A stretch of DNA of 64,000 nt from Nanobdellota archaeon (GCA_018830945.1 JAHJRD010000093.1:14495-78494); one strand, 5' to 3'; shown: positions 35,194 to 54,079, numbered from the stretch's first letter. Notes: generated from the letters alone by a model not told the origin. Translations and numbers: made by a program.

Positions 35194-35739
35194 ATGGCTT
35201 CAATCATGGATATTGGGCTTTTGGATTATTTTGTGCCTGTGTTCATATTCATCTTCATATTTGCAATACTTTTTGCCCTGCTTGAGAAAGTCAAGGTATT
35301 TGGGGAGAACAAGGGGCTTAATGCACTGATTTCATTTGCAATAGCCTTTCTTTTTGTATTGACTCCTGACTTGCTGGGCGTTGTCAAGATAATGACTCCC
35401 TGGTTTACAATACTGTTTGTGTTTGTCATAATGATTGTTCTATTATTCATGTTTGTCGGCGTTAAAGAAGGTGATATCACAGAGGCATTTACTGAAAAAG
35501 GCATGGTATGGATTATTGTAATCGTATGCCTGATAATCATGATTTATGCCCTGACACAGGTTTACGGCGCGCAGATACAGAACATAACTGTTGACGGGAA
35601 TACGACTGCTGATGCTTCTTCTCCGACAATGACATCGCAGGTTGGAAAGATTCTGTTCCATCCAAGGGTTTTGGGCATGTTGCTACTGCTTCTGATTGCA
35701 GCCCAGGCAGTCAGGTTTCTTGCAGGGCATGCGAAATAG
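35194..35739 (+). CDS. 4-TM membrane protein, tandem paralog 3 of 3
   Basis: FIFIFAILFALLEKVKVFGENKG. Preceded by a family-2 spacer element. Confidence 0.45.
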   Translation: MASIMDIGLLDYFVPVFIFIFIFAILFALLEKVKVFGENKGLNALISFAIAFLFVLTPDLLGVVKIMTPWFTILFVFVIMIVLLFMFVGVKEGDITEAFTEKGMVWIIVIVCLIIMIYALTQVYGAQIQNITVDGNTTADASSPTMTSQVGKILFHPRVLGMLLLLLIAAQAVRFLAGHAK

Positions 35740-35825
35740 GCAGACCTCCGGCGCACGTTAATTAATTTTATTCTTTCAAAATATTAAAAACAATAGAATT
35801 CACAGCGAAGCTCGGCTTATTTCAT
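35738..35825. repeat. intergenic repeat family 2, copy R2
   Basis: AGGCAGACCTCCGGCGCACGTTAATTAATTTTATT...CACAGCGAAGCTCGGC, lying between convergent genes. Confidence 0.45.
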
Positions 35826-38108
35826 CGCCTGCTTTCTAACTTCTTTCTTCAGCCAGTCTTCCCACTCAAACAGAATCCTTTTTGTATCAATATGCCCTTC
35901 ATCCTCCAAAACACTTTCAGAAATCCTGTGGAACATGTCATTTGCCTGTATTACAAATGCTGCCTCAAGCATCCTCGGATTTTTTGATCTTGCAGCATAC
36001 TCAACAACCAGCTTTTTGGTGTCAGCCCTGAGCATTATGTTGTCCCAGATGCCGTCCCAGTTTCCTGTCCACTCCTTTACATTCGCGCCAACTGCTTTCA
36101 AAATCTCTGACTCGCCGTTAATCAATTCAGGAGTCGGCTCAAGCTGGTCTGTCTGCGAATTATATCTCATTAAGTCAACAAAACCGCCTTCTGTCAATGG
36201 ATCATTCTCCCACTCTTTCCTTACTTCAGTAATCTGCGTAACCCTTCTCCATGTATGCAAGCCGTCAGGGCTTTTCAATGGGTTTGCCACAATTATCACG
36301 TCAGTTGCCTTGAATGATGTCTTTGGAACGCCCAAGTCATTCACAACCCTGTCGTATACGCCGTAAGGGGAATCGCCGTGTATTGTTCCTGCAACAGTAT
36401 TTGCCATTGCGCCTATTCTCATTGCCTCATACAATGCAAGCGCTTCCTTGCTTCTTACTTCTCCAATAATCAATGCGCTGTTCCCCAATCTTAATGATGT
36501 CCTTATGCCTTCTGTGGCTGACATCTCAGTGCCGCCTTCCATCAATGCAGACCTTACTTTCAAGGGCTGGATGTCATAGTTAAGTTTTCTTAGAGCATTA
36601 GTGGGTAATTCTAACGTGTCCTCTACCGTTATAATGCGGGAATTTCTCATTATGTCAATCATGCATGCGCCCAATAATGATGTCTTACCGCTTGACCTTG
36701 TTCCTGCAACAAGCATTGTCCTTGTGCCGTCAATCAGGAAGCTTATCAATCCCGCTGCCAATGGATTAATCATCCTGTTCTTAACAAACAATGGAAGTGT
36801 CCACGGCTCATCCCTGTGCCTTCTGAAAGAGAACGCAAGCCCGAATGGGTTTAACGGCCTTGAGACTATTGAAACCCTTGATGTTGAATCAGGGAGGTGC
36901 AGTTCAGTGTCAAGTATCGGGTTTGCCTCATCCAGCGGCCTTCCGCTTAATAATCTGAACTTTGTTGCCCAGCTGTCAGTGTCAGTTCTTGCAGGTATTA
37001 AGTTTGATGTGCAGTTGCCGTAGTTTGCATGCAAGACAAATATTGGCACTTCTCCGTTTGGCGAGTTAATCTGCGCATCCTGCACTTTGGTATCCTTAAG
37101 CACAAGCTCCATGAACCCAAACCCTATTGTGTGCCTTATGAGGATTTCAGTCAGAAGCTTTATGTCTTTCATATTGATTTCAATGCCCTGCTCCTCCGCA
37201 AGCTCCCTTAAAAGATCCTTTCCAATGTTTGAGAATGTGTTTCTTAATTTATGCGGGTCAAGAAAATGCTCTTCCTTTGGCTGGTGCTCAGCCAGCACTG
37301 TCTTTGCTAAATCAACAAGCGTATACTTGTCCTCGCTTATCTTGAACTCAGGAGGAGTCATGTGGTACATGAATTTAATGTCATCTGTCACCCTGAATAT
37401 TGTCACTTCAGTGTCCTTGTCAACTGTGTAAACCTCCATCTCTTCGCCTTCAAGAGGCGGGCTTGCCATCACTCTTGTGAACATGAAGTCAGGCGCAATC
37501 ACAGGCCTGAAGAATAACCTGTAAACACCCCTGTCGCCAAGAGTGTATCCTGCAAGGTATTCTTTTGCAGCCTTTATCAGCTTAAGCTCTGCAAGCATGT
37601 TAAAGATTGCAGTTAAAAGCGAGATGAATATCCTTCTTGAATCAGCCATTCTCGGGTCTGCTGTTGATTCCAGCTTTGCCTCTTCAGCCCTTAACATTCT
37701 TTTTAGCTCAACATATGCTCCCAAAGGGTCTGAGCGCAATAAGTTAAATACAATTGAATGCACAATAGCATATCTCTCTGCCAAAATCCCCTGCGCCTCG
37801 TAAGAAGCGCCCAAAGAGTCAGGGCTTAATACCTTCTTTGACTTGATTAAATAGCTGTAAAGATTTGCAACCTCAACAAGCATCTGCGTCTGGTCATAGG
37901 GGTACTCGTAAAACCTTCTTTGTATGAAAATGATTCTTGCAACAGAAGGGTTCTCAGCAAGCTTGTCAATGGCATCCATCATCACAATGGCTTCTCCCTC
38001 CACTGAAGGCGAGTAAGGGGCCTGCTCATAGTTTACTCTTATTACTTCTTCATTGCCCTCTTTTATAATTTCATATCCCCCTGGCGGGACTTTGTGTGAT
38101 TCTGCCAT
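35817..38108 (-). CDS. FlaI/VirB11/GspE-family secretion/pilus-assembly ATPase with long N-terminal extension
   Basis: Walker A GTRSSGKTS, RIITVEDTLEL, and the His-box region of type II/IV secretion ATPases. About 350 aa of extra N-terminal sequence. Confidence 0.75.
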   Translation of the reverse strand: MAESHKVPPGGYEIIKEGNEEVIRVNYEQAPYSPSVEGEAIVMMDAIDKLAENPSVARIIFIQRRFYEYPYDQTQMLVEVANLYSYLIKSKKVLSPDSLGASYEAQGILAERYAIVHSIVFNLLRSDPLGAYVELKRMLRAEEAKLESTADPRMADSRRIFISLLTAIFNMLAELKLIKAAKEYLAGYTLGDRGVYRLFFRPVIAPDFMFTRVMASPPLEGEEMEVYTVDKDTEVTIFRVTDDIKFMYHMTPPEFKISEDKYTLVDLAKTVLAEHQPKEEHFLDPHKLRNTFSNIGKDLLRELAEEQGIEINMKDIKLLTEILIRHTIGFGFMELVLKDTKVQDAQINSPNGEVPIFVLHANYGNCTSNLIPARTDTDSWATKFRLLSGRPLDEANPILDTELHLPDSTSRVSIVSRPLNPFGLAFSFRRHRDEPWTLPLFVKNRMINPLAAGLISFLIDGTRTMLVAGTRSSGKTSLLGACMIDIMRNSRIITVEDTLELPTNALRKLNYDIQPLKVRSALMEGGTEMSATEGIRTSLRLGNSALIIGEVRSKEALALYEAMRIGAMANTVAGTIHGDSPYGVYDRVVNDLGVPKTSFKATDVIIVANPLKSPDGLHTWRRVTQITEVRKEWENDPLTEGGFVDLMRYNSQTDQLEPTPELINGESEILKAVGANVKEWTGNWDGIWDNIMLRADTKKLVVEYAARSKNPRMLEAAFVIQANDMFHRISESVLEDEGHIDTKRILFEWEDWLKKEVRKQAMK

Positions 38109-38231
38109 ACACCCTCTTTTGTTAATCATAGAAAAGGGATTAAGGTATATAAAGATTGTTAGTGGAAAGTTGCTTATTGCTTATTAGTTGGAAAGCAAAG
38201 AAAGGCAGGCCTCCGGCATTATTATTTTGTT

Positions 38232-39248
38232 TTATTTAGGTTTATATGATATTCCTTTTTTCGTTTCTTCAACCACTTTTTTCAGGTCTTCCTTGGAAGG
38301 CAGATTAAGCTGGTATTTTGAAGCAAAAATCCTGCTGCTCATACCGCCAAGCGCGTATTTTACAAATGTATTGTCCTTTTCAGTGCAAAGCACAATGCCT
38401 ATCGGATCATTTTCCCCTTTCAGTGTTTCATTCTCCCTGAAATAGTTAACGTAAAAGTTCATCTGCCCTGCATCAGCATGCGTAAATTTCCCGCTTTTGA
38501 CATCAATCAGGACAAGGCAATTCAAAAACCTGTTGTAAAAGACAAGGTCAACATGATAATGCTCATTATTTATTGAGATTCTTTTCTGCCTTGCAACAAA
38601 TGCATATCCTTTCCCAAGCTCCAATAAAAACTCCTGCAAATGGTCAATCAATGCCTGCTCTATCTGGCTTTCTGTGTATTGGCTTTCTTGCTTGAGATTA
38701 AGGAATTCAAGCACATAAGGGTCTTTTATTTGCTCATCGGGACTTGTTTGGCTGACTTTTGTTTTTGCAAGCAAGGGCTTTTTATTTTTGCTTAAAGCAA
38801 GCCGTTCATATAGCAATGAATGAATCTGCCTTTCGAGTTCCCTGGAATTCCATCCTTGTTTTTCTGCTTCGTTTAGGTAAAATCCTATTGCTTCTTTATT
38901 TTTAATGTAGAGAACGCTGCGATAATGCGTCCATGACAATTTCCTCCGCACTGCGGAGGAATTCCGGAACAGGCAATAAAAGCGCCTCATTCTTTCAAGG
39001 TTTTCCACGCCAAATCCCCTCCCATATTTCAAAGTTAAATCTACTGATAGCTTTTCCAGCAACCTGCTTCCATAGTCAGCCTTTATCTTTCCTTTCTGCT
39101 CAAACTCTATGATTCTTCTCCCTATTTGCCAGTAAGTGCGGGTTATGGCTGTGTTAACAGCAGATGCAGCCTGCCTTCTTCCTTGTTCAAGCAGTTTTCC
39201 TATGTCTGATATGAGCCTGTTATATCCTGCTTTTTGCATTATTTTCAT
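38232..39248 (-). CDS. DUF1016/YhcG-family PD-(D/E)xK nuclease
   Basis: C-terminal HVDLVFYNRFLNCLVLIDVK(SGKF) PD-ExK core, and an N-terminal DUF1016-like helical region. Confidence 0.6.
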   Translation of the reverse strand: MKIMQKAGYNRLISDIGKLLEQGRRQAASAVNTAITRTYWQIGRRIIEFEQKGKIKADYGSRLLEKLSVDLTLKYGRGFGVENLERMRRFYCLFRNSSAVRRKLSWTHYRSVLYIKNKEAIGFYLNEAEKQGWNSRELERQIHSLLYERLALSKNKKPLLAKTKVSQTSPDEQIKDPYVLEFLNLKQESQYTESQIEQALIDHLQEFLLELGKGYAFVARQKRISINNEHYHVDLVFYNRFLNCLVLIDVKSGKFTHADAGQMNFYVNYFRENETLKGENDPIGIVLCTEKDNTFVKYALGGMSSRIFASKYQLNLPSKEDLKKVVEETKKGISYKPK

Positions 39249-39496: not shown

Positions 39497-40093
39497 ATGA
39501 TTAAGGCAATACTTTTTGATGCAGGCGGAGTAATAATAAAATCAGGGAACCAAATAAATATATTTGCCAAAATTTTCAGGGCAAAAAACAAGCATAAGCT
39601 ATGGGAGAAGATTAACCATTACGTCGGCCCGCTATGCGCCGGGAAAATGTCTGAGAAAGAATACTGGAAAATTATAGCCAAATCAGAAGGAATTGATCCT
39701 AAAAACATACCTGATAATCTTTGGGCCAAAAACTATGGAAAAACAACCAAGATAGACCATAAGATGATGGCATTGATAAAAAGCCTAAGAAAGCAATACA
39801 AAACCATCCTCATCTCCAACACAATCAGGCCCCATGTAATTATCAATAAAAAGAGAGGGCTGTTTGATAATTTTGATGATGTCATAAACTCAAATGAAGT
39901 GCATCTTTCAAAGGATACAAAATCAATTTTTCAGCTTGCCCTGAAAAGAAACCATCTTAAAGCCGAAGAATGCATTTTTATTGATGATATCCAAAAATTT
40001 GTGGATATCGCAAAGTCTGCCGGAATACCTGGAATTTGTTTTAGGAATGTAAGTCAATTAAAAAAAGAGCTTTCCCGTTTGGGAATGTTATAA
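39497..40093 (+). CDS. HAD-superfamily hydrolase
   Basis: Motif I ILFDAGGVI, with a downstream S/T and K, D..D motifs in HAD order. Confidence 0.6.
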   Translation: MIKAILFDAGGVIIKSGNQINIFAKIFRAKNKHKLWEKINHYVGPLCAGKMSEKEYWKIIAKSEGIDPKNIPDNLWAKNYGKTTKIDHKMMALIKSLRKQYKTILISNTIRPHVIINKKRGLFDNFDDVINSNEVHLSKDTKSIFQLALKRNHLKAEECIFIDDIQKFVDIAKSAGIPGICFRNVSQLKKELSRLGML

Positions 40094-41351: not shown

Positions 41352-41831
41352 CTATCCTAACACCCTTATCGTTTCCCTCTGAACCTTGAGTATCAGTTCT
41401 TTTACCCTCTTCAGCTGCTGCAAATCAATGCTTGTTTCCACGCCGTATGTGGAAATCTCCCTGGTTTCCCTTATAGTCAGGCTGGTAAGGCTGTTCTCAA
41501 CATCAAGAGTGTCAAATTGGGCAATCAAGTCCTTATCCAAATCCAGCTTATGTTCTTTTATCAAAGCAAGCATGGCGGTGATTGTGCAGGACTGATTTCT
41601 GGATTCATAGCCGTATTTGGCAAGTATTGCCAGAAAGCAGTGATAAATGGCATAAAACCCCACATTTAAAGCCCAGTCATATATCTTCAGCCTTTCAAGG
41701 GTTAATACAACACCATAATTATATTCAGACTTTTTAAGGTGCTTTTGCGCTAAATCCATGTCAGCTTTTGCCTTTACCAGCCTTTTTGCATCTTTCAGGT
41801 GCCATTTCAAATGATTGTCTATTTGCGGCAT
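41352..41831 (-). CDS. HEPN domain protein
   Basis: YAIYHCFLAILAKYGYESRNQSCT block shared with 19360..19881. Confidence 0.6.
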   Translation of the reverse strand: MPQIDNHLKWHLKDAKRLVKAKADMDLAQKHLKKSEYNYGVVLTLERLKIYDWALNVGFYAIYHCFLAILAKYGYESRNQSCTITAMLALIKEHKLDLDKDLIAQFDTLDVENSLTSLTIRETREISTYGVETSIDLQQLKRVKELILKVQRETIRVLG

Positions 41832-42421
41832 TTTTTTATTACCTCCACATATTTCTCAGGGTTATGAAATACAAGATTATCTGACATAATGCTATAAAAT
41901 GCCTTATCTTCCTTGTTTTTTAAAATATCTTTTTCAGTTATATCAACATACCTTATTGGCTGTTCAACCAGCCCTGATTTTCTTATTTCATCTTTTATGC
42001 TTTTAACCCCTGCGGATTTCCCAGCAGGGTACATAAGTAAAATGTCTATGTCATTAAAATGCCTGCTTTTTATGGACGAGCCGAATACCAACCCAAGCTC
42101 TATGCTCTCTTTAAATTTTTTCAAGCTGTGCATCAGGACAGACAGCCATTTGGGAAACTCTTCCTGGCTCAGCATGTATTCCATAAACTTTATTGCCAGC
42201 TTGCTATTGTAAGCATAAGAAAAGAAAGCGGAATTTCCTATTTCCTCTTTTACGAGCAGATTTTTGCCTGCCAAAAGGTTGCAGAGCTTATTGGCGTGGG
42301 CATGGTTGATGCCTAATATTCTTGCTAATTGCCGCGGGTTATGCCTCTCTTTGTAGCGCTTAAAAAGAAATTTGGCTATCTGGATTTCGGTCTTTGTGAA
42401 TTGTATGTTATTAACATCCAT
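41819..42421 (-). CDS. wHTH-fused nucleotidyltransferase (MNT)
   Basis: GSSIKSRHFNDIDIL motif. Start moved to MDVNNIQF because the upstream part of the listed ORF is the R6 repeat. Confidence 0.65.
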   Translation of the reverse strand: MDVNNIQFTKTEIQIAKFLFKRYKERHNPRQLARILGINHAHANKLCNLLAGKNLLVKEEIGNSAFFSYAYNSKLAIKFMEYMLSQEEFPKWLSVLMHSLKKFKESIELGLVFGSSIKSRHFNDIDILLMYPAGKSAGVKSIKDEIRKSGLVEQPIRYVDITEKDILKNKEDKAFYSIMSDNLVFHNPEKYVEVIKKCRK

Positions 42422-42467
42422 GTGTATTCTGATAGCATACAGCATATATAAGCTTTGCGTTTTGGAA

Positions 42468-42552
42468 AAGCCAGCCTCTGTCACTCCGCAAGCTGCGTTC
42501 CGAGCCCCACTTCTCTCCGCTCGCAGGACTCCGGCGCACTTCACTCAATTCC
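42468..42552. repeat. intergenic repeat family 2, copy R6
   Basis: AAGCCAGCCTCTGTCACTCCGCAAGCTGCGTTCCGAG...GCAGGACTCCGGCGCAC is ~80% identical to R5. Confidence 0.45.
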
Positions 42553-43496: not shown

Positions 43497-45728
43497 ATGG
43501 TTATAGGCTTCGGCCCTACAAAGGGCGCAAAAAACATCATGGGCAAGTATGGCCTTAAGATGGGAGAAAGGTTCAAGCCAAGCATGATGGACCTTCCAGG
43601 CCCTGAAAAGGTTTTCTCAAAGGATTACAGCATATTCAGGGAAGAAACATTAAGGGCAAGCACCGGATTCTATGAAGAAGCCTGCAGGTTTGCTGAAAAA
43701 ATAATCAAAGTAGACCCTAAAGAGGAAGACAGGAAAAAGCTGGAGGTTGCAATAGAAAGAGCCCACATCAGCGTTACGCCGACAGGAGCATATTCATTAG
43801 GCGTTATTGCAATGATTTTATTCATCGCATTAGGAGGGCTGATACTTCTTATCTCATATTTCCTTTCAGAGGCAGGGCTTATAGCAGGCACGCAGTTCAT
43901 GCTTCCCATAATCCTTATTCTTGGAGGAATAATTGTGTTAAAGCCAATCAGCAAATACCCTGTCCATCTTGCAATGAAATGGAGGCTGCAGGCATCAAAC
44001 CAGATGGTTTTGTGCATTCTCTACATTGTGATGTACATGAGGCATACATCAAACCTTGAGCATGCAATAAAGTTCGCAGGCGAACACATTGGCAACCCAT
44101 TGGCTCTTGACTTAAGAAAAATCATGTGGGATGTTGAAACAAGAAAATACTCAACAATAAAGGAAGCAATAGACATCTATCTTGAGCAGTGGAAGGATTA
44201 CAACCTTGAGTTTGTCGAATCATTCCACCTTATTGAATCATCATTGTTTGAAAGCAGCGAGCAAAGAAGGGTTGAGCTTTTGGAAAAAGCTTTGGAAGTA
44301 ATGCTTGAAGGCACTTACAACAACATGATGCACTATGCGCAGGAAACAAAAAGCCCAATCACAACGCTTCACATGCTTGGAGTCATACTTCCTGTATTGG
44401 GCTTAATCATACTTCCATTAATGGGAGCTTTTCTCGGGGTAAAATGGTACCAGCTTGCCATAATCTATAACATAGCTTTGCCAATAGGAGTGTATTTCAT
44501 GGGATACAGGATAATGGCAAAAAGGCCTGTTGGATATGCGCAGTCAAACATCTATGAGACAAGCGCAAAATATAGGAGCATGCGAATGTTCTCTTTTGGA
44601 GGAAAAGATATTGAGCCAAAGAATGCAGCTTTAATGATTGGCACGGCAATAGTTCTTATCGGGCTTCTTCCTCTTCTGCTGCACCTTATAGTCCCGGGCC
44701 AGGACATACCGATTGGAAGCGCTGCCCAGCCGCTTGGCATGCTGCTTGACTACAAGCTTGCTGACTTTGAAGTTGGAGGTAAAATAGTGGAGAAATCCAT
44801 AGGCCCCTTTGGAATCGGCGCTTCATTGTTAAGCTTGTTCATAACATTGGGAATCGCAATAGGGATTGGATTTTATTTCAAGACAAGGTCAACCAAGCTC
44901 ATGAAAGTAAGGGATGAAACAAAAAAGCTTGAGGCAGAGTTTCAGGGCGCATTGTTCCAGCTTGGCAACAGGCTTGGTTCTGGAATACCAACTGAAATGG
45001 CTTTCAGCTCTGTTGCTGAAACACTGCATGGCACGCCAACAGGAAACTTCTTCACATTGGTTGACAGCAACATAAGAAGAGGGGGAATGAGCTTAAGGGA
45101 TGCAATATTTGATGAAAAGCACGGCGCAATAAACTCATACCCAAGCTCATTGATTGACAGCTCAATGAGGGTTCTTGTTGAGACATCAGAGAAAGGGCCG
45201 TCTGTTGTGTCAAAAGCAATGATTAACATCTCAACATACCTTGACAGGATAAACAAGGTAAATGAAAGGTTAAAGGATTTGCTTTCTGAAACAGTCAGCT
45301 CAATGAAAGCGCAGGTTTCATTTTTATCGCCTGTTATTTCAGGCATTGTTGTCGGCATTGGCACGATGATAACAACAATCATAGGCGGGCTGACAACTGC
45401 GTTTGCCCTTGCAGGAGACGAAGGAGGCGGGGAAGCAATGGGGATTGCAGGCGGGCCTGCTTCAATGCTTGAATTTTTTGACATAAAAACACTTATGCCA
45501 CCTTATTTTTTCCAGATAGTTGTCGGGATATACCTTATAGAGGTTGTTTACATACTTACTGTGCTGGGAAACGGCATTGAAAACGGGGTTGACACGCTTA
45601 ATGAGGAAGACAAGCTTGGCAAAAACTTATATAAAAGCGCTGTCTTTTACATAATAGTCGCGGCAATAACAATGATAGTGTTTAACATGCTTGCTACAAT
45701 GATTTCATCAAGAGTGGCAGGCGTTTAA
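43497..45728 (+). CDS. FlaJ/TadC/GspF-like polytopic platform protein (two T2SS-F-like repeats)
   Basis: Twofold architecture of a TM pair followed by a cytoplasmic helical domain (…HAIKFAGEHIGNPLALDLRKIMWDVE… and …LGNRLGSGIPTEMAFSSVAETLHGTPTGNFFTLVDSNIRRG…). SD AAGAGGGA upstream. Confidence 0.55.
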   Translation: MVIGFGPTKGAKNIMGKYGLKMGERFKPSMMDLPGPEKVFSKDYSIFREETLRASTGFYEEACRFAEKIIKVDPKEEDRKKLEVAIERAHISVTPTGAYSLGVIAMILFIALGGLILLISYFLSEAGLIAGTQFMLPIILILGGIIVLKPISKYPVHLAMKWRLQASNQMVLCILYIVMYMRHTSNLEHAIKFAGEHIGNPLALDLRKIMWDVETRKYSTIKEAIDIYLEQWKDYNLEFVESFHLIESSLFESSEQRRVELLEKALEVMLEGTYNNMMHYAQETKSPITTLHMLGVILPVLGLIILPLMGAFLGVKWYQLAIIYNIALPIGVYFMGYRIMAKRPVGYAQSNIYETSAKYRSMRMFSFGGKDIEPKNAALMIGTAIVLIGLLPLLLHLIVPGQDIPIGSAAQPLGMLLDYKLADFEVGGKIVEKSIGPFGIGASLLSLFITLGIAIGIGFYFKTRSTKLMKVRDETKKLEAEFQGALFQLGNRLGSGIPTEMAFSSVAETLHGTPTGNFFTLVDSNIRRGGMSLRDAIFDEKHGAINSYPSSLIDSSMRVLVETSEKGPSVVSKAMINISTYLDRINKVNERLKDLLSETVSSMKAQVSFLSPVISGIVVGIGTMITTIIGGLTTAFALAGDEGGGEAMGIAGGPASMLEFFDIKTLMPPYFFQIVVGIYLIEVVYILTVLGNGIENGVDTLNEEDKLGKNLYKSAVFYIIVAAITMIVFNMLATMISSRVAGV

Positions 45729-45744
45729 AAAAAGAGGAAAACAT

Positions 45745-45843
45745 ATGGCAATGAAAAGTCTTGTGCTGGTTATCCTGGCATTAATGCTTGGAGTAATTAT
45801 TATAATCGCAATAATGGGAATGAAAAAAGGTATAGGAATATGA
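45745..45843 (+). CDS. 32-aa single-TM peptide (not in ORF list)
   Basis: MAMKSLVLVILALMLGVIIIIAIMGMKKGIGI. AAGAGGAAA SD, and ATGA overlap with the next gene. Confidence 0.3.
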   Translation: MAMKSLVLVILALMLGVIIIIAIMGMKKGIGI

Positions 45844-46568
45844 TTTCAAAAAAAGGCTCAATTGACATACAGGTTGTTGTCGGAGTGATACTGCTGCTTG
45901 CAGCGCTTATAGTAATAGGCATTATCATAGCAAGCGCTGTGTTTGGTGTATCATCCACAGACATGAAAAAATTCTCCTGCTGGGCTTCAAACGGAATGAA
46001 GTCAAGCAATTTTGTGTTCAAGAGCCAGCTGCCTTCAACCTGTGAAATCAATAATATTGAAGAGCCTGCTGATGTTGAAGCCATTGCAAAGATGATGACA
46101 GAAACCTGGTGGATGTACGGCAAGGGAACATGGGACTTTGGAAAAGAGGACCATGAAATTGCCGTGTTTTATTTTGAAGCTGCCAAAGACATAAAGTTTG
46201 ATGAAGTTCTTAACTTTCTTACAGCGACAAAAGACGGCAAGCGCGTCAGCGATATAGCTGACTCTGATTATAATTATCTTGCAAAAGGCTCAAATGATCC
46301 AACAATATGCACTGGCAAAACACTTGGGGACCAAGGCATGACTCCGACAATGAAAAAAGGAGAAAGGTATTTCATAATGTTCTGGGATGATGCAAGCATT
46401 TTGGGCCAGGGCAGGGAATATGGGGACAAGGTGGCTATTGCAGGAAAGCCGCAGCTTGGGCAGGAAGGAGCGTATTACTGCTTTTCAAAGCCAAGAGGGG
46501 AATGGCTCAGCATCTCAAATGACAACAGGCGGATATGGATGCCTGTTATAGGAGATGTGTCATTATGA
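45840..46568 (+). CDS. pilin-like protein with putative class-III (prepilin-type) signal peptide
   Basis: MISKKG|SIDIQVVVGVILLLAALIVIGIII: a KG-type cleavage context followed by a hydrophobic helix. Confidence 0.45.
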   Translation: MISKKGSIDIQVVVGVILLLAALIVIGIIIASAVFGVSSTDMKKFSCWASNGMKSSNFVFKSQLPSTCEINNIEEPADVEAIAKMMTETWWMYGKGTWDFGKEDHEIAVFYFEAAKDIKFDEVLNFLTATKDGKRVSDIADSDYNYLAKGSNDPTICTGKTLGDQGMTPTMKKGERYFIMFWDDASILGQGREYGDKVAIAGKPQLGQEGAYYCFSKPRGEWLSISNDNRRIWMPVIGDVSL

Positions 46569-46810
46569 TGAAAAACTTAAACAAAGGTATAATGACAGGT
46601 GTTAAGTTTCTCAAATATGCCTGCTGTAAAGATGAAAAGACTTATGCCCGCAGGCATATGAGCCGGAAAGGAAAGCTTGCTCTTGAGTATCTTGCAGTAA
46701 TAGCTCTTGCGCTGATTGTGCTTATTGTGGTGCTCATATTCAGCAGCAAGATAAGGGAAAAGGCGTTTGACGCAGGAAGAAGTTTCCTGGGGATAATAGG
46801 GAGAAGATAA
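46565..46810 (+). CDS. small protein with class-III signal-peptide-like motif
   Basis: Internal RKGKLALEYLAVIALALIVLIVVLI resembles PF04021-like KGxxxLEYLL. The preferred start is 46565 (AGGAG upstream), with 46658 as an alternative. Confidence 0.4.
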   Translation: MMKNLNKGIMTGVKFLKYACCKDEKTYARRHMSRKGKLALEYLAVIALALIVLIVVLIFSSKIREKAFDAGRSFLGIIGRR

Positions 46811-46960
46811 ATGACAGGCGATATAGCAAAAGAGATACTGCTGAAAGCAGCTTGTGAAGAAGTGCAAGTCCCGGAAAAGTGTCTAGAAGGATGCGGGCTG
46901 AAACAGAGTGAAATGCCCGCACGGGTTGATAAGGGCGAAGCCCTTATAGGTAGAAGGTAA
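46811..46960 (+). CDS. small hypothetical protein (49 aa, not in ORF list)
   Basis: GGGAG SD. It sits tightly between flanking genes (MTGDIAKEILLKAACEEVQVPEKCLEGCGLKQSEMPARVDKGEALIGRR). Confidence 0.25.
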   Translation: MTGDIAKEILLKAACEEVQVPEKCLEGCGLKQSEMPARVDKGEALIGRR

Positions 46961-46961
46961 A

Positions 46962-48734
46962 ATGGAAGTACCAGAGTGGCTGACAAATGCAATCATCGTG
47001 CTTGTTGTGATATTCATCATAGGCGCCATTATATACCTCATTGCTCCTGAAACCTATAAGGACATATTCAGCATTGCAGAGGAAACATTTGAGATAGGAG
47101 AAGAGCAAAAAAAAGCAGAGGCTGCGCAGGAAATAATAGGCACAACAGTAGAGGCATTTAACCTGTGCATTGAAAATGCTGTTGAGGGATGCAGCTGCGC
47201 GCTTGATGAAAGCAGCCTGCCAAACGGCTATATAATCTGGCTCAAAAATACTAAAGATGATGAAGGCAAAAAAATACTCAAGATGCAGGCATTTACCCCT
47301 CAAGGCGCTGCAATAAGCAATGCAAGAGACTTCTCAAACATTAATGTGAGGCTTGCGGTTGCAGGCACTGCAAAAACAAAAAATGATATTGAAAAAGAAG
47401 GGGTAATCTGCGCAGAAAGCGACATGCGCATATGGAACAATAACGGCAAAATCAGGATTGGCGCAGAAACAGGCGGCGCAGGTGAAGTGCAGTGGTTTGA
47501 CTTTTACCATGAAACACATTCTAACCAGATACTGAAGCAGGGAAGCAATGTATGCTTCCTTACAAATACTGTTGAATCAGGCATAGTGGGAATGGCAGGA
47601 ACAATAGAAGACACAGAGAGATTTAACTTTATTGCAGAGGTTGACTTACCAAGCAATCCTACTGAAGCAGGAAGAATCGCTGCAGAAGCATTGAGAAGCC
47701 TGCCTGCCTGCACAGGCACTGACAGGTCAAACTATCTGGTTTTATGGCCTGTTTTGCCGCAAAACATAATCTCAGTCGACTCATGCAAGGACAGGCCGCG
47801 CGAGCTGGCTTCAAGCATGGGCACAAACATCCCGCTTACTGCAACTGAAGACAGCGATGTTATAGTGCCTGTCAATAAAGGGGCTGTAACTGATTATTGC
47901 CTGGAAAACTGCGGTGATGAAGGCAAGAGCGTGACAATGTATGAAGTATATGATACAGGAATAAACTGGCCCACAAGCAGGCGCATAAAGATTGCAGGAT
48001 TAAAGGAGATTGATGAAAAATACCAGGTTAAGGGCGTTATAGAATCAACAAAAATAACAAAAGGCGCTAATGTATCTGCAGGCGATATTCTCGGGAAGGC
48101 AACAGCAAAGATCAGCTATATCCAGGACTTCCCAATGCAGGTAAGCAGGCCTGCAAATCCCGGGGCATTATTGCCGTTTGGAATTATTGAGGAAGAAGGC
48201 ATATTAGATACCTTGTCAAGAAATGCATTGGAAGAAAGGTTCTGCTCACTTCCAAGATTATCAGCTGAAAAATACAAAGGAGAAGGATGCGAAAGAATCA
48301 CATCAATCAACGGATGCAGCAGGGCCTTAACAAGAGGCTCGCTGCAGGAGATAGCAGACAAGATATCCCAGCTTAAGAACGGAGAAAGCGATAAAACAGT
48401 TCTTTCATTTATCCAGGGCGGAAGGCATTATGGATATCTTTTTGTGTTCGCAAGAGGGGCTAATGCTTATACAGACGAATGGATTGGAATAGATGTACTT
48501 GCAGAAGACACTCCAAGGCCTGCAATATGCAACATGGACAAGCACTGCATCTGCCTTTGTATGAATGAAAATTCCTGCAGCAGCGGGCTGTGCCAAGAAC
48601 TGCCTGAATACGGATTTAACCCGACAACAGTTAATACTGCAATGATTGGAAGCGATAACGCAAGAGAAAAGACAATACATTTCCAGAGGCTTGGGGAAAG
48701 GCTGGGCATATGCACAAGCACGCCCTGCATATAA
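46962..48734 (+). CDS. N-terminally anchored, Cys-rich extracytoplasmic protein
   Basis: N-terminal hydrophobic helix (EWLTNAIIVLVVIFIIGAIIYLIA) followed by a 560-aa Cys-rich domain. Confidence 0.45.
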   Translation: MEVPEWLTNAIIVLVVIFIIGAIIYLIAPETYKDIFSIAEETFEIGEEQKKAEAAQEIIGTTVEAFNLCIENAVEGCSCALDESSLPNGYIIWLKNTKDDEGKKILKMQAFTPQGAAISNARDFSNINVRLAVAGTAKTKNDIEKEGVICAESDMRIWNNNGKIRIGAETGGAGEVQWFDFYHETHSNQILKQGSNVCFLTNTVESGIVGMAGTIEDTERFNFIAEVDLPSNPTEAGRIAAEALRSLPACTGTDRSNYLVLWPVLPQNIISVDSCKDRPRELASSMGTNIPLTATEDSDVIVPVNKGAVTDYCLENCGDEGKSVTMYEVYDTGINWPTSRRIKIAGLKEIDEKYQVKGVIESTKITKGANVSAGDILGKATAKISYIQDFPMQVSRPANPGALLPFGIIEEEGILDTLSRNALEERFCSLPRLSAEKYKGEGCERITSINGCSRALTRGSLQEIADKISQLKNGESDKTVLSFIQGGRHYGYLFVFARGANAYTDEWIGIDVLAEDTPRPAICNMDKHCICLCMNENSCSSGLCQELPEYGFNPTTVNTAMIGSDNAREKTIHFQRLGERLGICTSTPCI

Positions 48735-48735
48735 A

Positions 48736-51099
48736 ATGGACGAATATCCCACTGCTTCAATTGTTTTTGTTGTTCTGACAATATTAGGGCTGGGACTTGC
48801 CATGTTTCTTGCAATAGAACTCATGTACAACACTGAAAAGCCCGCGCCTGAGAAAAGCGCAGATTTCTACAAGGGAAAGCAGGATGTTGCAAACGCGTTC
48901 CACAACCTTGCAAAGGCATACCAGGACTGTGTTGCTGAAACCAACTGCATGTGCGACATCTACAGTGTTTATTTTCCTGCGAAGTATTCAATCAGGATGG
49001 AAAATGCAGGAAGAAGCCTCAAGCTGACGCTTATGGAGCGCGGAAACCCCCTACTTTCTGAAACAATAAATAATATCAATACAGGGATTATGAAAAGCAG
49101 GAATGACAGGGCCTGCGGCATGGATGAGCCCATTGAAATCAATGCAGAAAAAAAAGGATGGTATGCTTCTCAGGGGGAAAGCATAGACAGGCACTACTTC
49201 TTAGATTCAATTGAAGAAATCTACAAGCCATCGCAGGGAGTTTCCTGCATTATCACTGAATCAATGATTATTGACAGCAATGAAACATTAAGAAGCATTG
49301 AAGACTATTTTGGCAACCTGCCAAGATGCACATTCAAGCGCAAGAAAAAAGAAGAGCTTGCCTTAACAGCATTCCGCACTTTTGTTGAAGAGTTCAACAA
49401 GTGCGGTGAAAAGGAAGAAACATGCATGTGCGAGTTCAGCAGGCTTTCAATGCCTGATGAATACTTCATAAAAGCTGAAACAGGGGATGAAAATACAATC
49501 TTTACTCTTGCAAAATCAAAGCAGGGGTTTGAGGCTGAGAAAGAAATCCTGAAGCTGGAAGGAGAGGCAGGGCTTATGGTTGAAGACAAAAGCATACCAG
49601 AGTTCAGGCAAGAGCCAGGATGCATCTACACAAAAGATAATGAAGCAGGATTTTATGCAGGATGCGATATTGCAAAAAAGCCTGCCAAGATACAGGCTGT
49701 TTTTTATGATGCAAAAGCAGGGTTTGTCATAAGCAACGGCGGAATACTCAGGCTTGGCGCTGAAAGAGTGAACAGGGCAAACATTGAACTCTGCAGCATA
49801 TCAAGGAAAAAGGCCTATGAATACATCTGGCCTGCTGATAAAATGAACAATGTGTATTATGCAGGTGAATGCTTTGGATCTGGGGAAGAGCAGTGCAGCA
49901 AGGGCATATTTATCCCGCAGAACCCGGGCTCAGGCGTGTATGCTGCAGAAGAAGGCATTGTTGAATATGTCGGCTCTGGAATAATCAGGCTCAGGCACAA
50001 GAATGGCGTAAGAACGCAGTATGAAAATGTTGAAGCAGATGAATCACTAAAAGCAAGAAACGCAGTCACAAGAGGGCAGAAGATTGGCAAGGCAAGCGGA
50101 AAGAAAGGATTGTTATTTTCTCTTTCTGATAATACAGCGCACGCAGAGCTGTTTGAAGACAAGGAGATATGCAGGGAACGCGAGAACAAGGCAGAAGCAA
50201 TCAGCGTGCTTAAGTATGGAATGCATTACCTTAATCCTGCCTGCTATTTCAGCGAGAATATACGCAATTCAATTGTTTATCCAAAGAAATGCGAAACAAT
50301 TTTCAAGGGCTGTGATGTTTACGGCAATGAAGAGCAGCCAAGGTATGATATACGGCTTAAGGTGCTTGTAATGCCAGTGAATTGGGAAAGGCAGCTGTCG
50401 TATCTTTTATATGCCAATAATGCGCTTGACAAATTCCTAAAGGCAACGCCTCTTGCTGACTGCCCGCAAAGGTTTGAAAAAGCTTTTGTTGACGGTGTTA
50501 CTGATTTCGGGGATAAATGGAAAGGCGGAAGCTGCATGATAGAAGGCAACAAGAACTGCCTTGCTGATGCACTGCAGGGTGTAAAGCAGTGCGCAGAACA
50601 GTACAAGGAAAGAACAGGCGAGAGCTTTGACTTTGTTGTGGGTGTTGAGGACTCTGACATTGCCAATTACCCTGAATGCAACTTTGCTGACAGGGGCTGG
50701 ACATCTGAGAATTCCGACTCAGCCATAGTGGAAGCGCAGTATGCAGCCGATGTACTGCACGAGCTCGGGCACAAGTTCGGGCTGAAGGACCAGTACTGCG
50801 ACTGCTCAGGAACTGATGCAGAAGATGTATGCGGGTTTAATGCAAATCCAAACCCTTTGAGAAAAGAGCTGGGGTGCGGAGACAAGTGCTGTGTCTTGTC
50901 AGAAGGATATTCGCCTTACACAGAAGGGTGCATGTGGTGCTCAGGAAATTTAGACATAAAGGCAAAGGATACAAATGATGATAAGATGCTTGACTCTGGA
51001 AAAAGGACAGTAATGTCAAACCTTATAGACTCTGAAAGCTACAGCATAGATGAATACCTGTTATTAAAAGCAAGCACAAAATTGCAGTGCACACGATGA
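48736..51099 (+). CDS. anchored HExxH..D-x-Y zincin-like metallopeptidase (M64-like motif)
   Basis: HELGHKFGLKDQYCDC followed by several Cys pairs, with an N-terminal TM anchor. taaaATG coupling to the upstream gene. Confidence 0.5.
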   Translation: MDEYPTASIVFVVLTILGLGLAMFLAIELMYNTEKPAPEKSADFYKGKQDVANAFHNLAKAYQDCVAETNCMCDIYSVYFPAKYSIRMENAGRSLKLTLMERGNPLLSETINNINTGIMKSRNDRACGMDEPIEINAEKKGWYASQGESIDRHYFLDSIEEIYKPSQGVSCIITESMIIDSNETLRSIEDYFGNLPRCTFKRKKKEELALTAFRTFVEEFNKCGEKEETCMCEFSRLSMPDEYFIKAETGDENTIFTLAKSKQGFEAEKEILKLEGEAGLMVEDKSIPEFRQEPGCIYTKDNEAGFYAGCDIAKKPAKIQAVFYDAKAGFVISNGGILRLGAERVNRANIELCSISRKKAYEYIWPADKMNNVYYAGECFGSGEEQCSKGIFIPQNPGSGVYAAEEGIVEYVGSGIIRLRHKNGVRTQYENVEADESLKARNAVTRGQKIGKASGKKGLLFSLSDNTAHAELFEDKEICRERENKAEAISVLKYGMHYLNPACYFSENIRNSIVYPKKCETIFKGCDVYGNEEQPRYDIRLKVLVMPVNWERQLSYLLYANNALDKFLKATPLADCPQRFEKAFVDGVTDFGDKWKGGSCMIEGNKNCLADALQGVKQCAEQYKERTGESFDFVVGVEDSDIANYPECNFADRGWTSENSDSAIVEAQYAADVLHELGHKFGLKDQYCDCSGTDAEDVCGFNANPNPLRKELGCGDKCCVLSEGYSPYTEGCMWCSGNLDIKAKDTNDDKMLDSGKRTVMSNLIDSESYSIDEYLLLKASTKLQCTR

Positions 51100-51779
51100 A
51101 ATCAATAAAAATCACAATGTTGGTTATCCTGCTAGTTATGATGCTGCAGTTTGTTTCAGCTGCAGTGCTTGAGGCTGACATTATTATTGGAAGGGAAAAG
51201 ACAGCTGCTTCTTTGAAAGTTGATGAAGGCAGGGCTTCTGATTACTCAAATGAAAGCGGGAACTACAGGCTTGAGATAAAGGATGCCGCAGGCGCTGCAT
51301 TATGGGCAAGAAACTATGATGTTAAGTTTGTTATACTGACAAACCCGCCGCAAATTACTGATTATGAGATTATCACTGAGAAAATAGAATATGATTCTAA
51401 GATGTATGAAATGTACTTCTACAGGGATTCAGATGTTTTGCTGCACAGGTATCTTGATTTCTGTGATGCAAATGGCTTCTGTGACAGGAAAGAGAATGCA
51501 GTATCATGCCCTGCTGACTGTTCTGTCGCTGACTATGATGGTATATGTATTGCAAAAGATGATGGAATCTGCGACCCTGACTGCATTGCTGATAATGATT
51601 GTATGCGGCTTGAGCAGAAAAGAAAAAAGCTTTGGGTATCTGCCCTTATTGCATTTGCTGTTTCTGTGATTGGAGGCATATGCTTTGTGCATTTTGAAAA
51701 GAAGAAGGTAAAGACAGCAATAGGGAAGGTCTTGTCTGCATGGAAGCGCTTTCAAAAGCAATGGAAAGGAAAGCAATAA
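51096..51779 (+). CDS. secreted Cys-rich protein with C-terminal TM anchor
   Basis: Sec-type signal peptide, CDANGFCD...CPADC...CDPDC, and a C-terminal helix WVSALIAFAVSVIGGICFV. Confidence 0.45.
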   Translation: MKSIKITMLVILLVMMLQFVSAAVLEADIIIGREKTAASLKVDEGRASDYSNESGNYRLEIKDAAGAALWARNYDVKFVILTNPPQITDYEIITEKIEYDSKMYEMYFYRDSDVLLHRYLDFCDANGFCDRKENAVSCPADCSVADYDGICIAKDDGICDPDCIADNDCMRLEQKRKKLWVSALIAFAVSVIGGICFVHFEKKKVKTAIGKVLSAWKRFQKQWKGKQ

Positions 51780-51811
51780 GCTTTTAATACCTCTTATACA
51801 ATATATAGCAT

Positions 51812-54079
51812 ATGAAGAAAAAAGCCCCTATGGCGCTGCTCTTTATTTTATCTATTCTGCTGTTTGCATTAAGCAGCCTTGCCATAACTGAAGAAGCGGG
51901 GCCTGCAGGATTCACTATGTATTACAATGATGCAGGAAACCTGCTTTTGGGGATCAACCCTGATGATTTAAATGCAGTGTTTGGAGCTGATTATTGGGAG
52001 GCTGCAAACGGGTTTCTTAATGTTTATTATGATGAACTGGGCGCAAGAAGAAATTTTGGGCAGCTTTCAGGGCTTGTTGTTGTTGACAGAGACAGGAAAG
52101 CCATCGAAGTCAGCAACGGGGCCTATAATGCACCAACAAGCCAATCCAACCCAATAAGAATTGAAGGTAAAGAGTTTGCATTTCAATTCCTTGCTCCTGA
52201 TCGCGGGACAATATTCAGCATAACCGGCGGGATTTACGTGCAGGGAAAATATTTTATTGGATGCATGCCAACAACCAGCAATGACCCTGAATGCGCAATG
52301 AAGGTTTTTGTTGTATCATATGATTCGCTTATGTCTATTGAAGGCAATGGGTTTATAACGCATTCTGACAACCGGGGCTTGTTCCTTAATGAGGGATATG
52401 AAGCATTAAAAGCATCCATTGAAGAAAAGAAAGCAGAGGGGGAGGATGTAAGCGAAGAGGATGTTTATCCCATAAGCAATATGCAAAGCGTGCAGATTCT
52501 TGATTCGGAAATATTTTCAATGATTGCAACGCCGAAAGAAAATGCGGTTTTGGGGGAATGGGCTATTGCGTCAGAAGAGGTTGTGCATATTTTTGCAGTA
52601 AAAATGGGGGAATTTGCATTTACCAGCGATGATTTATATGCTTCTGCAAATTCTGCACAGCCAGTGCCATCTATTTTAGCTAAAACAAAAACAAGGAACG
52701 CTAATGTGCTCATCGAAACCCCTGGCTATGACGCAACAATTGAGCTTGAAAGCGGCTTTATAATGGTTACAGGGGAAGAAGAAAAATATAACAGGTGCGA
52801 GCAGGGCATTGCGTGCTTTTTGTTTAAAGGAGATACATTAAGGATAAAGCCGCAGGCTTTCAGAGGCGAGGAATATGAGCCTTTATGGGTTACTGTGACA
52901 ATACCAGAAAGGATTACAAATGTTGAGCTAGATGCATTTGACACAGCCGGCTCTGAATCATGGATTAACCATGTCAAAATAAGGAGAGCAGGTGTGTCAG
53001 AGCTATTGGCTTTTTATAATGGTGAGATTATTGTCAGCCCAGGCGGCAACTGGTTCAACTTAAGAACTGATTTCAAGGCCCACATTGAGGGGCAAAGAGA
53101 GCTTTATGAAGGAGAATTATCATTCACTGAAACAGTTCGCTCAGGCTTTTATGATGTTTTTGAATGCACTTACCGCGACCAGAAATGCTATTTGAATGGC
53201 GTGCAGGTGCAGGGATTTACTGAGCAGCATGCTATTCATTTCTGCAAAAGAGATTCTGAGTGCGATGCAGAAAGGAGATGCATTAAGGAAGAGGGAAATA
53301 CAATCGGATTCTGCGTCAGAAGAGCAATATGCACTGACACAGCATATGCTTTCCCTTTAATGGAGATTCCAGGATTACCAGAAGCTGTAAAAAGGAACAT
53401 ACGTTCTGCTTCAAAGCTGGATATTGTTTTTATTGCTGATGAATATGGTTCAGAAACTGAATTTGACAGAGACTTAAAAAAGGCAGTAGACAGCGGCCTG
53501 TTTGCTGTTTCGCCTTTTAAGGAGAATGTTCAGAAGTTTCTGATATACAAGATGAACGGCGGGTCAATGCCATTTCTCATTACCAATATAGGATTGTCTT
53601 TTTTATATGAAGCAAGAGAAATGAAAAAGCAGTGTGCAGGCGCAGAATATGCAATTGTAATTTCAAAGAAAAATTTTGGTTCATTTGAAACGGACGGATT
53701 TGTATCAATATCACAAAGAGATTTATATAATGAAAAAGAAGGCGGGGCGTTGGTTGTTCCGCACGAGTTCGGGCACGCCTTTGGAAATCTGTATGATGAG
53801 TATTATCTCTATGACAGCACTGATCCTTCCTGCCTGACAGGCTTCCCTAACTGCCTTGAATATGATGATGCAAAAACCTCGTGGGGGGAGGATTTGGCTA
53901 ACCAGGCAAGAAGAAACGTATGGAAAGGATGCGGTGGATACTGCAATGACCGCAGCTATGCAGAATACCTGAAGCCTGCCGCAAACTCAATAATGGGTAT
54001 CTTAAGCAAGCCAGGTCATACTGAATTCAGCCCGCCTGGAAAGCAGTGGCTGGCAAACTTGCTTTTGCGATATACATGA
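51812..54079 (+). CDS. secreted HExxHxFGxLxDEY zincin (peptidase M64-like motif)
   Basis: Signal peptide MKKKAPMALLFILSILLFALSSLA, and HEFGHAFGNLYDEYY near the C-terminus. Confidence 0.55.
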   Translation: MKKKAPMALLFILSILLFALSSLAITEEAGPAGFTMYYNDAGNLLLGINPDDLNAVFGADYWEAANGFLNVYYDELGARRNFGQLSGLVVVDRDRKAIEVSNGAYNAPTSQSNPIRIEGKEFAFQFLAPDRGTIFSITGGIYVQGKYFIGCMPTTSNDPECAMKVFVVSYDSLMSIEGNGFITHSDNRGLFLNEGYEALKASIEEKKAEGEDVSEEDVYPISNMQSVQILDSEIFSMIATPKENAVLGEWAIASEEVVHIFAVKMGEFAFTSDDLYASANSAQPVPSILAKTKTRNANVLIETPGYDATIELESGFIMVTGEEEKYNRCEQGIACFLFKGDTLRIKPQAFRGEEYEPLWVTVTIPERITNVELDAFDTAGSESWINHVKIRRAGVSELLAFYNGEIIVSPGGNWFNLRTDFKAHIEGQRELYEGELSFTETVRSGFYDVFECTYRDQKCYLNGVQVQGFTEQHAIHFCKRDSECDAERRCIKEEGNTIGFCVRRAICTDTAYAFPLMEIPGLPEAVKRNIRSASKLDIVFIADEYGSETEFDRDLKKAVDSGLFAVSPFKENVQKFLIYKMNGGSMPFLITNIGLSFLYEAREMKKQCAGAEYAIVISKKNFGSFETDGFVSISQRDLYNEKEGGALVVPHEFGHAFGNLYDEYYLYDSTDPSCLTGFPNCLEYDDAKTSWGEDLANQARRNVWKGCGGYCNDRSYAEYLKPAANSIMGILSKPGHTEFSPPGKQWLANLLLRYT

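Follow-up and report, generated by a model that had tools for sequence, protein, structure and literature searches.

A Tad/Epd-like type IV filament locus with a variable block of surface proteins in Woesearchaeota-type archaea

Positions 43497–54079 of a 64,000-nt stretch of DNA from an uncultured metagenome-assembled genome (MAG) of a Nanobdellota archaeon (GCA_018830945.1, JAHJRD010000093.1; the whole stretch is hereafter the window) hold a run of genes for a putative type IV filament system (Table 1). A preliminary description of the window had counted eleven co-directional, tightly spaced genes in this interval; direction and spacing are as described, and the count is nine open reading frames (ORFs), all on the plus strand, eight of which are credible. 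The run is densely packed with junctions that are mostly overlaps or gaps of 0–16 nt, the wider gaps lying ahead of position 51812 (32 nt) and ahead of rpl1 (~110–130 nt), which is followed by rpl10 and rpl12 (the three genes at 54189–56096, 3' of the interval). An identical Logan contig has the same gene calls, and base composition between 46 and 54 kb gave no hint of recent foreign origin. The window is archaeal, based on rpl1, rpl10 and rpl12 and on close homologs that are all in Nanoarchaeota/Woesearchaeota MAGs. For comparison, we used ~80 loci from a scan of species genomes; L002–L083 are contigs of relatives. Across these loci, a conserved core is composed of a secretion ATPase, a GspF/PilC-like platform protein, a 32-aa transmembrane (TM) peptide, a ~240-aa class-III protein, i.e. 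one with a prepilin-type N-terminus, and a ~45-aa Flp-like mini-pilin. The core is followed by a variable slot of proteins with an N-terminal anchor module and differing extracytoplasmic domains. The platform gene is present in at least 559 Woesearchaeota/Nanoarchaeota species genomes, and a Tad/Epd-like filament locus with a lineage-specific cargo block behind it is near-universal in Woesearchaeota-type DPANN archaea.

The first gene of the run had been described as encoding a two-repeat platform of the GspF/FlaJ/TadC type. The 743-aa protein is polytopic with ~9 hydrophobic segments, and in its AlphaFold model (pLDDT 78), two helical cytoplasmic domains are accompanied by a beta-rich loop around residues 365–435. 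The small helical domains match the cytoplasmic domain of EpsF (Foldseek probability 0.99, TMt 0.70), and the fold also matches PilC and SpoIIIAB, these matches exceeding a background of non-specific helical ones. At the sequence level, the protein scores 19.9 bits against Pfam T2SSF, under the cutoff of 25.2, with matches for 2 of 38 homologs; searches of PDB sequences with the single sequence and with a 38-sequence profile returned nothing useful, and an hhalign comparison of the two halves detected no internal repeat (E 0.4). Because the halves have no detectable sequence repeat, the term "two-repeat" describes the predicted structure only, while the platform assignment itself is favoured by topology, fold and synteny. 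Because Pfam misses the platform at its cutoff, it represents a family without a curated model. Platforms from hundreds of species are 50–78% identical, and the columns of the 38-sequence alignment average 62% identity; we note that such conservation is unusually high for a DPANN membrane protein. Synteny is a stronger argument for the identity of the platform than sequence or fold: a T2SSE ATPase of ~760 aa is encoded directly 5' of the platform in ~55 of 80 loci, including L002 and L003.

In the window, the ATPase gene lies ~5 kb from the platform gene. Its product scores 55.7 bits against Pfam T2SSE (cutoff 24.9), matches 2oap (Archaeoglobus fulgidus GspE2; 4e-28), CpaF (4e-22) and FlaI (2e-14) in the PDB, and is 84% identical to the ATPase of L005, which sits one gene (a 211-aa ORF) 5' of the platform. 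This identity to an enzyme encoded near the platform confirms the earlier guess that the distant ATPase serves the system; the gene had been placed at 35817..38108, and it extends to 38129 and is on the minus strand. As a separate observation, the ATPases of L012, L014, L063 and L083 are 1277–1979 aa long and contain one or two insertions of ~500–700 aa near residue ~500, which end in ...NFI.NNI.AHNT, an intein signature, within a highly conserved protein.

Three small products follow the platform. The 32-aa TM peptide, as previously suggested, belongs to the system: tblastn places it directly 3' of the platform in L005, L008, L009, L010, L012 and L014 with 34–48% identity. The 242-aa protein has the N-terminus MISKKG/SIDIQVVVGVILLL (slash, predicted cleavage site); its orthologs occupy the first slot 3' of the platform in most loci and have [KR][GA] followed by a hydrophobic helix in 41 of 57 cases, while Pfam Pilin_N matches at E = 0.05 only. 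The mini-pilin begins with MSRKG/KLALEYLAVIAL and would have a mature length of ~45 aa. Its ORF is open from 46535/46565 and its true start is at 46658; the long form of 81/91 aa was rejected, its 31-aa N-terminal extension not being conserved. Thus, both class-III N-termini that had been reported are present, the second in a gene of ~50 aa rather than 81/91 aa. The mini-pilin is 63–71% identical to genes of 51–53 aa in L008 and L005 and is the candidate major subunit. In its family of 43 members, many show [KR]G-x-L-x-[WL]-[ED]-Y, position +5 being [ED] and position +6 Y or a different residue in many members (KG/KLALEY in the window). Because it has no Pfam match, its likeness to Flp is a resemblance and not proven homology. 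A 49-aa ORF behind it was discarded as a real gene: close relatives examined contain no similar sequence, and L005 has an open frame of equal length at that place. Pfam and NCBIfam recognized none of the 32-, 50-, 49-, 227-, 242- and 590-aa products and none of the relatives' pilins; because pilin models match no subunit, the pilin assignment is based on motif, position and conservation.

Class-III signals are present in the window at the level of the motif, which is conserved in orthologs. Near the locus, the only such N-termini are MISKKG/S... and ...SRKG/KLALEYL..., with a few weaker regex matches elsewhere in the window. Across loci, regex-defined class-III-like N-termini are 10-fold enriched 3' of the platform (193/426 versus 79/1041; odds ratio 10, p 2e-58). 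Moreover, L072 has a gene for an A24 prepilin peptidase close to the locus (Pfam Peptidase_A24, 58.3 bits), with blastp homologs in L048, L068 and L071. Together with the synteny of ATPase and platform, these data bear out the central claim of the preliminary description, a type-IV-filament-like surface system.

The slot behind the core is highly variable in content and size across loci. In the window it is filled by large extracytoplasmic proteins that had been described as Cys-rich, and this holds: Cys content is 3.4% (590 aa), 4.1% (787 aa), 4.0% (227 aa, previously given as 228 aa) and 2.1% (755 aa) compared to a window median of 1.1%. An N-terminal anchor helix and an alpha/beta module (N-module) are common to the 590- and 787-aa proteins, the module being duplicated in the 787 family. 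A hidden Markov model (HMM) of the N-module matches slot-3 proteins of about two dozen other loci, including L002, L028 and L037 whose proteins carry SLT domains; counted by protein, 25 or more of 55 that were examined have the module in this slot. Because slot-3 proteins with varied C-termini have the N-module in common, slot 3 is a conserved carrier with exchangeable C-terminal domains. Genes similar to those for the 590-, 787- and 227-aa proteins come after the pilins in L005/L007, L008 and L014. The 590-aa protein consists of the anchor helix, the conserved N-module and a divergent body; the protein itself has no Pfam or PDB match, and its family profile finds nothing in the PDB. Because its ortholog L014:9583 scores 32.9 bits against Pfam M23, the body possibly includes a very degenerate LytM-like region, this ortholog being the only basis. 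The 227-aa protein has hydrophobic segments at residues 1–32 and 177–202 and nine Cys residues, and is predicted to have a Sec-type signal peptide and, behind a Cys-rich region, a TM anchor at the C-terminus. In L005, an ortholog with 61% identity is encoded 3' of the 787-like gene, and homologs are found in the same place in L007, L008 and L014.

The 787-aa protein (32 Cys) combines the anchor helix and two N-modules (about residues 40–175 and 200–345) with a LytM/M23 domain (about residues 385–470, nt 49888–50145) and a zincin domain (residues 530–787, nt 50323–51096) that contains an invariant HELGHKFGLKDQYCDC in the family. The LytM domain, which the preliminary description missed, scores 33.5 bits against Pfam Peptidase_M23 (cutoff 28.7), and its fold matches many M23/LytM structures at a Foldseek probability of 1.0, including the LytM domain of PrgK. 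Its best sequence relative in the PDB is the inactive LytM factor DipM, and in a profile alignment to Gp16 (9m7n), nkGie and sllf take the places of hkGMD and HLHF. Since neither HxxxD nor HxH is retained, we class the 787-aa protein as a degenerate LytM-domain protein. All 12 full-length homologs are on contigs of the platform's own subclade. In Foldseek searches with an AlphaFold2 model based on these 12 sequences, only the LytM domain found matches, and nothing was returned for the zincin or the N-modules.

Both the 787- and the 755-aa protein had been assigned to peptidase family M64 on the basis of a shared HExxHxFGxLxD(E/Q)Y signature. In six frames, the whole window contains just six HExxH motifs, and each of the two proteins carries one. 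The signature is strict in the 755-aa protein (HEFGHAFGNLYDEY at residue 651), whereas the motif of the 787-aa protein, HELGHKFGLKDQY, is one residue shorter, the consensus of its family being AHELGHxFGLxDEYCDC...NPL..GCD..CC...GGRSIMS. Membership of M64 is not supported for the 787-aa protein: there is no Pfam or PDB match to M64, and among 64 relatives of the domain M64 is outside the 25 commonest Pfam families, while 6 of the 64 weakly match Reprolysin_4/5. An hhalign comparison of the two zincin families gave a probability of 67% (E 5e-5). The 787 zincin family forms 68 clusters at 50% identity among 1.84 billion protein representatives; its named members are DPANN archaea, and its partner domains include NosD/beta-helix, CARDB, VWA, PKD and dockerin. 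Judged by these relatives, the domain appears to be an unnamed, DPANN-centred Cys-rich family. By comparison, the 755-aa protein, which has a Sec-type signal peptide, scores 24.4 bits against Pfam M64, just under the cutoff of 26, and the profile of its family aligns with the M64 structures 3p1v (1.3e-6) and 4df9 (5.3e-6) over two colinear segments. Hence, of the two proposed zincins only this one can be shown to be M64-like. The 755 family has only three homologs, and NCBI calls a relative with 31% identity "M64 family".

The 755-aa gene had also been counted as part of one operon with the platform, but its membership of the locus is not stable. Its ortholog in the closest relative examined (HA362, L006) is on another contig, beside rpl15e, and in L008 a 755-like gene lies 3' of the 227-like gene as in the window. 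The 51780–51811 gap contains a TATA-like element, TTTTAATA, ~26 nt 5' of the ATG, and because of this box the 755-aa gene may be transcribed alone from its own promoter as a leaderless mRNA. In L006, the M64-like gene near rpl15e is accompanied by a PLD-domain gene, TctA and DUF362; in the window, TctA/DUF362 (14297–16936) are ~36 kb upstream. The different placement at a platform identity of 78% indicates substantial shuffling of gene order.

Bacterial type IV filament machines also serve in secretion and DNA uptake. The machine might not be an adhesive pilus at all but a pseudopilus that exports the 755-aa peptidase and other proteins in the manner of a type II secretion system, or a Com-like DNA-uptake device. 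Such functions would be in line with the presence of many minor-pilin-like genes and one very short major subunit in the locus, and with the reliance of DPANN archaea on scavenged nucleotides (PMC8204110). However, an outer membrane that would have to be crossed is absent, as is a secretin, the signal peptide of the 755-aa protein is an ordinary Sec-type one, the loci examined showed no gene of DNA-binding or ComEC-like type, and the ATPase is closest to archaeal GspE2 and to CpaF of the Tad pilus. We consider this alternative very improbable.

A wall-hydrolase theme emerged when we scanned 55 proteins of at least 360 aa from the gene runs 3' of the platform: M23 was found in six, SLT in six, Amidase_2 in two, a weak M15 in two and M64 in one. 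The SLT proteins are encoded in L002, L028, L037, L034, L059 and L071, Amidase_2 also occurs in L051, and the window contains no SLT domain. The L059 protein has the class-III N-terminus MFKRG/ALSTIQDLFIGL together with SLT (71 bits) and M23 (91 bits) domains, the latter with HDGID and HLH intact; the L034 protein similarly joins a class-III N-terminus to SLT (91 bits) and Amidase_2 (105 bits). Using home-made HMMs seeded with matches inside the runs, we counted 11 peptidoglycan hydrolase (PGH)-type ORFs among 459 in the runs and 2 among 1088 elsewhere in the same loci, both of these 2 being close downstream of the platform. The preliminary description had held that pilus machinery does not usually share an operon with giant Cys-rich metalloproteases, which is wrong for this lineage, as wall-hydrolase-type modules recur in the locus. 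SLT proteins of Woesearchaeota/Pacearchaeota have been read as a sign of bacterial hosts (PMC8204110, PMC9723730), and archaeal PGHs kill bacteria (PMC12352652). In the literature, coverage of which was incomplete, we found no link between Woesearchaeal wall hydrolases and a pilus locus, and this is an absence of evidence only.

Modules of this type could also work on the cell that makes them, by opening or organizing the archaeon's own wall or S-layer for passage of the filament, cf. VirB1, PrgK, FlgJ and BfpH. Bacterial machines that span the envelope routinely come with SLT or LytM proteins of their own, and PrgK, whose LytM domain is among the Foldseek matches of the 787-aa protein, is the wall hydrolase in a type IV secretion system of Gram-positive bacteria. 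Murein synthesis is not known from archaea, though, and there is no murein-synthesis family among the ~30 window ORFs put through Pfam. Published work treats the SLT proteins as aimed at bacteria (PMC8204110, PMC9723730), and closely related lineages vary in their hydrolase content, a pattern more in line with an arms race than with housekeeping. An own-envelope role is in our view very improbable.

A further possibility is that the filament core is real and the Cys-rich proteins are unrelated neighbours in a fast-evolving region with functions in nutrient scavenging or surface maintenance. The off-locus position of the 755-aa ortholog in the closest relative examined would agree with this, as would the restriction of the 590, 787 and 755 families to a narrow clade (12 homologs for 787, 3 for 755), the great variation in slot content and size, the rearrangement of the locus in the window and the occurrence of 787-zincin relatives in many unrelated architectures (NosD, CARDB, VWA). 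Yet the N-module of the 590- and 787-aa proteins is kept in the same slot in about two dozen loci irrespective of the C-terminal domain, the genes abut or overlap (1-nt gaps, a 4-nt overlap), other lineages fuse hydrolase domains to class-III N-termini inside the pilin run, and PGH-type ORFs are concentrated in the run. On this evidence, we regard an association by mere proximity as rather unlikely.

Instead, we hold it moderately probable that the locus encodes a Tad/Epd-like filament equipped with envelope-targeting modules for attachment to a partner and local digestion. In this model, an A24 peptidase from another part of the genome would cleave the mini-pilin, which the ATPase and the platform would then polymerize into a filament, and the 590- and 787-aa anchor-module proteins would sit at or in the machine. 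The non-catalytic LytM domain may bind wall peptide while the Cys-rich zincin may cleave peptide or protein, and two further products, the 227-aa protein with its anchor and the 755-aa M64-like peptidase, which would be secreted, may work beside them. Together, these modules would attach the cell to the envelope of its partner and digest it locally. Because sister lineages carry SLT, intact M23 and Amidase_2 domains in the slot or on class-III N-termini, the partner is most plausibly a bacterium. Based on gene content, a role in cross-domain interaction is plausible.

Several observations weigh against a filament armed for attachment and digestion. Pfam recognizes the platform only below its cutoff and does not recognize the pilins. 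A search of the 64-kb window by tblastn with the lineage's own A24 enzyme found no prepilin peptidase, and no further pilin genes were found in the window, although relatives have 6–8 more pilin-like genes. The N-termini of the 590- and 787-aa proteins (MEVPEW... and MDEYPTAS...) are without the [KR]G cleavage motif, and because of this their incorporation into a filament is speculative and simple membrane anchoring may apply. With a pLDDT of 53, the model of the 787-aa protein is too poor to back a pilin-like fold of the N-module. The window encodes no peptidoglycan hydrolase that would be catalytically competent, its M23 domain being without HxxxD/HxH. The HMMs behind the PGH counts were seeded inside the runs, linkage of the 755-aa gene to the locus is unstable, and the organism is an uncultured MAG.

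A more far-reaching version of the attachment model, which we put forward as possible and tentative, is that of an "armed" type IV filament. Here, pilin-like or machine-anchored subunits with interchangeable SLT, M23, amidase, LytM and zincin modules would make up a contact apparatus for attaching to and breaching bacterial hosts or prey; the variant in the window would have swapped the glycosidase/amidase for a wall-binding LytM domain and Cys-rich metalloproteases.

The surroundings of the run in the window differ from those in relatives. In nearly all of the latter, a pair of coiled-coil genes is divergent from the ATPase gene (coiled-coil genes on the minus strand, ATPase on the plus strand, just 5' of the platform); the pair adjoins the ATPase in most loci and is at 3678–4127 and 3185–3685, both on the minus strand, in L005. 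Because the coiled-coil genes and the ATPase of the window are reversed relative to this arrangement, the block at 35817–41262 is inverted. Pfam returned only coiled-coil noise for the two proteins. Genes for a YhcG/PDC-S02 nuclease, a HAD hydrolase and a HEPN/nucleotidyltransferase pair are inserted between the displaced ATPase and the platform; the nuclease matches the PADLOC candidate defence family PDC-S02 (E 1.5e-138), the HEPN pair weakly matches PDC-M05A, and it looks like a defence or mobile insertion split the pilus locus. The three tandem 4-TM paralogs, which had been suggested to supply the motor, match no Pfam family (noise only) and have orthologs of 43–83% identity in the same order in L002, L003 and L005 with a similar trio in L039; only a conserved neighbourhood is seen, and the suggestion is not supported. 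They are part of a block at 32100–35739 (M50-like membrane protein and TraB/PrgY on the minus strand, a 94-aa PRC-barrel protein and the 4-TM trio on the plus strand) that is syntenic with the pilus locus across Woesearchaeota, with 37–83% identity in L002, L003 and L005. Elsewhere in the window, two ORFs without a Pfam family encode an N-terminal TM segment and a very long K/E/R-rich coiled coil (59511–62165, plus strand, 884 aa; 7764–9635, minus strand, 623 aa), the former coinciding with strong GC and AT skew at 60–62 kb. The most Cys-rich product of the window (277 aa, 11.2% Cys; 58092–58925, minus strand) has the lipobox-like N-terminus LLLAVVGC.

Table 1 Features of the filament locus and its surroundings in the window
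Feature	Position	Strand	Basis
743-aa polytopic platform, GspF/PilC/TadBC/FlaJ-like	43497..45728	+	model, synteny, hydrophobic segments
32-aa single-TM micro-protein	45745..45843	+	hydrophobic throughout; tblastn conservation
242-aa pilin-like protein	45840..46568	+	class-III-type N-terminus; ortholog position
~50-aa Flp-like mini-pilin	46658..46810	+	motif; 63–71% identity to relatives
49-aa ORF, doubtful gene	46811..46960	+	no conserved counterpart
590-aa Cys-rich anchored protein	46962..48734	+	N-module HMM; L014 ortholog
787-aa Cys-rich protein, degenerate LytM/M23 + zincin	48736..51099	+	Pfam, Foldseek
227-aa Cys-rich protein, predicted signal peptide + TM anchor	51096..51779	+	hydrophobic segments; orthologs
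755-aa secreted protein, M64-like C-terminal domain	51812..54079	+	profile versus M64 structures
770-aa secretion ATPase, CpaF/GspE/FlaI family	35817..38129	-	Pfam T2SSE; PDB matches
Two coiled-coil proteins, 173 and 163 aa	40234..41262	+	80% and 77% identity to L005 pair
Three tandem ~180-aa 4-TM paralogs	33990..35739	+	same-order orthologs in relatives
YhcG-type PD-(D/E)XK nuclease	38232..39248	-	
HEPN/nucleotidyltransferase pair	41352..42544	-	
HAD hydrolase	39497..40093	+	

In groundwater and sediments, Woesearchaeota and Pacearchaeota rank with the most abundant archaea that have not been cultured. Earlier genome surveys reported stray murein-hydrolase genes, from which bacterial hosts were guessed (PMC8204110, PMC9723730). 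With wall domains inside a near-universal, conserved pilus locus and some of them on prepilin-type N-termini, this guess becomes a testable machine with specific candidate proteins and host-range markers. It would also widen the idea of the "functionalised" archaeal filament from nutrient binding to inter-domain attack.

Compared to known systems, the locus resembles Tad/Flp and archaeal Epd-like pili in its CpaF/GspE2-like ATPase and polytopic platform with GspF-type cytoplasmic domains. It further resembles Tad/Flp systems in its very short major subunit (G/xxxxEY), its several minor pilin-like genes and the A24 peptidase of the lineage. Unlike in Tad/Flp systems, the platform is a single ~730-aa protein under the Pfam T2SSF cutoff, the ATPase of ~760 aa has a long region at its N-terminus, the core is accompanied by a conserved 32-aa TM peptide and by two divergent coiled-coil genes, and a variable slot encodes an anchor module bearing wall-hydrolase or peptidase domains. 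The archaeal relatives of the Tad/Flp pilus include the "system 1/4" type IV filament loci (Makarova 2016, PMC4858521; Sivabalasarma & Albers 2026); in the portions of these censuses available to us (PMC4858521 and bioRxiv 10.64898/2026.04.22.720090), this locus and lineage and wall hydrolases are not treated.

For the individual modules, the LytM domain of the 787-aa protein shares the M23 fold and the loss of HxxxD/HxH with degenerate LytM factors (DipM, EnvC, NlpD, Csd2, SpoIIQ, the LytM domain of PrgK), which are also its Foldseek matches. These factors regulate or scaffold the wall enzymes of the bacterium itself, whereas here an archaeal surface protein carries the domain, flanked by anchor modules on one side and a zincin on the other. 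The 755 family shares HEFGHsFGgLaDEYY and an upstream strand-helix segment with M64 peptidases (IgA protease of Thomasclavelia ramosa; Bacteroides 3p1v and 4df9) and differs in a ~500-aa N-terminal region without known relatives. The extracellular SLT proteins of Woesearchaeota/Pacearchaeota (fam00969, Castelle 2021; Vigneron 2022; PMC8204110, PMC9723730) are similar in lineage and in having surface domains directed at bacterial walls; the available portions of those papers do not place them in a pilus locus or on pilin-like N-termini, and the window has no SLT protein. Finally, archaeal filaments have been found to be functionalised via class-III signal peptides on substrate-binding proteins (bioRxiv 10.64898/2026.04.22.720090). 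Such bindosomes carry solute-binding domains, while here the domains are PGHs in relatives or LytM plus zincin in the window, and the two large proteins of the window are without a [KR]G site; what the two arrangements share is that non-pilin functional domains on prepilin-type N-termini are encoded with, or used by, a filament assembly system.

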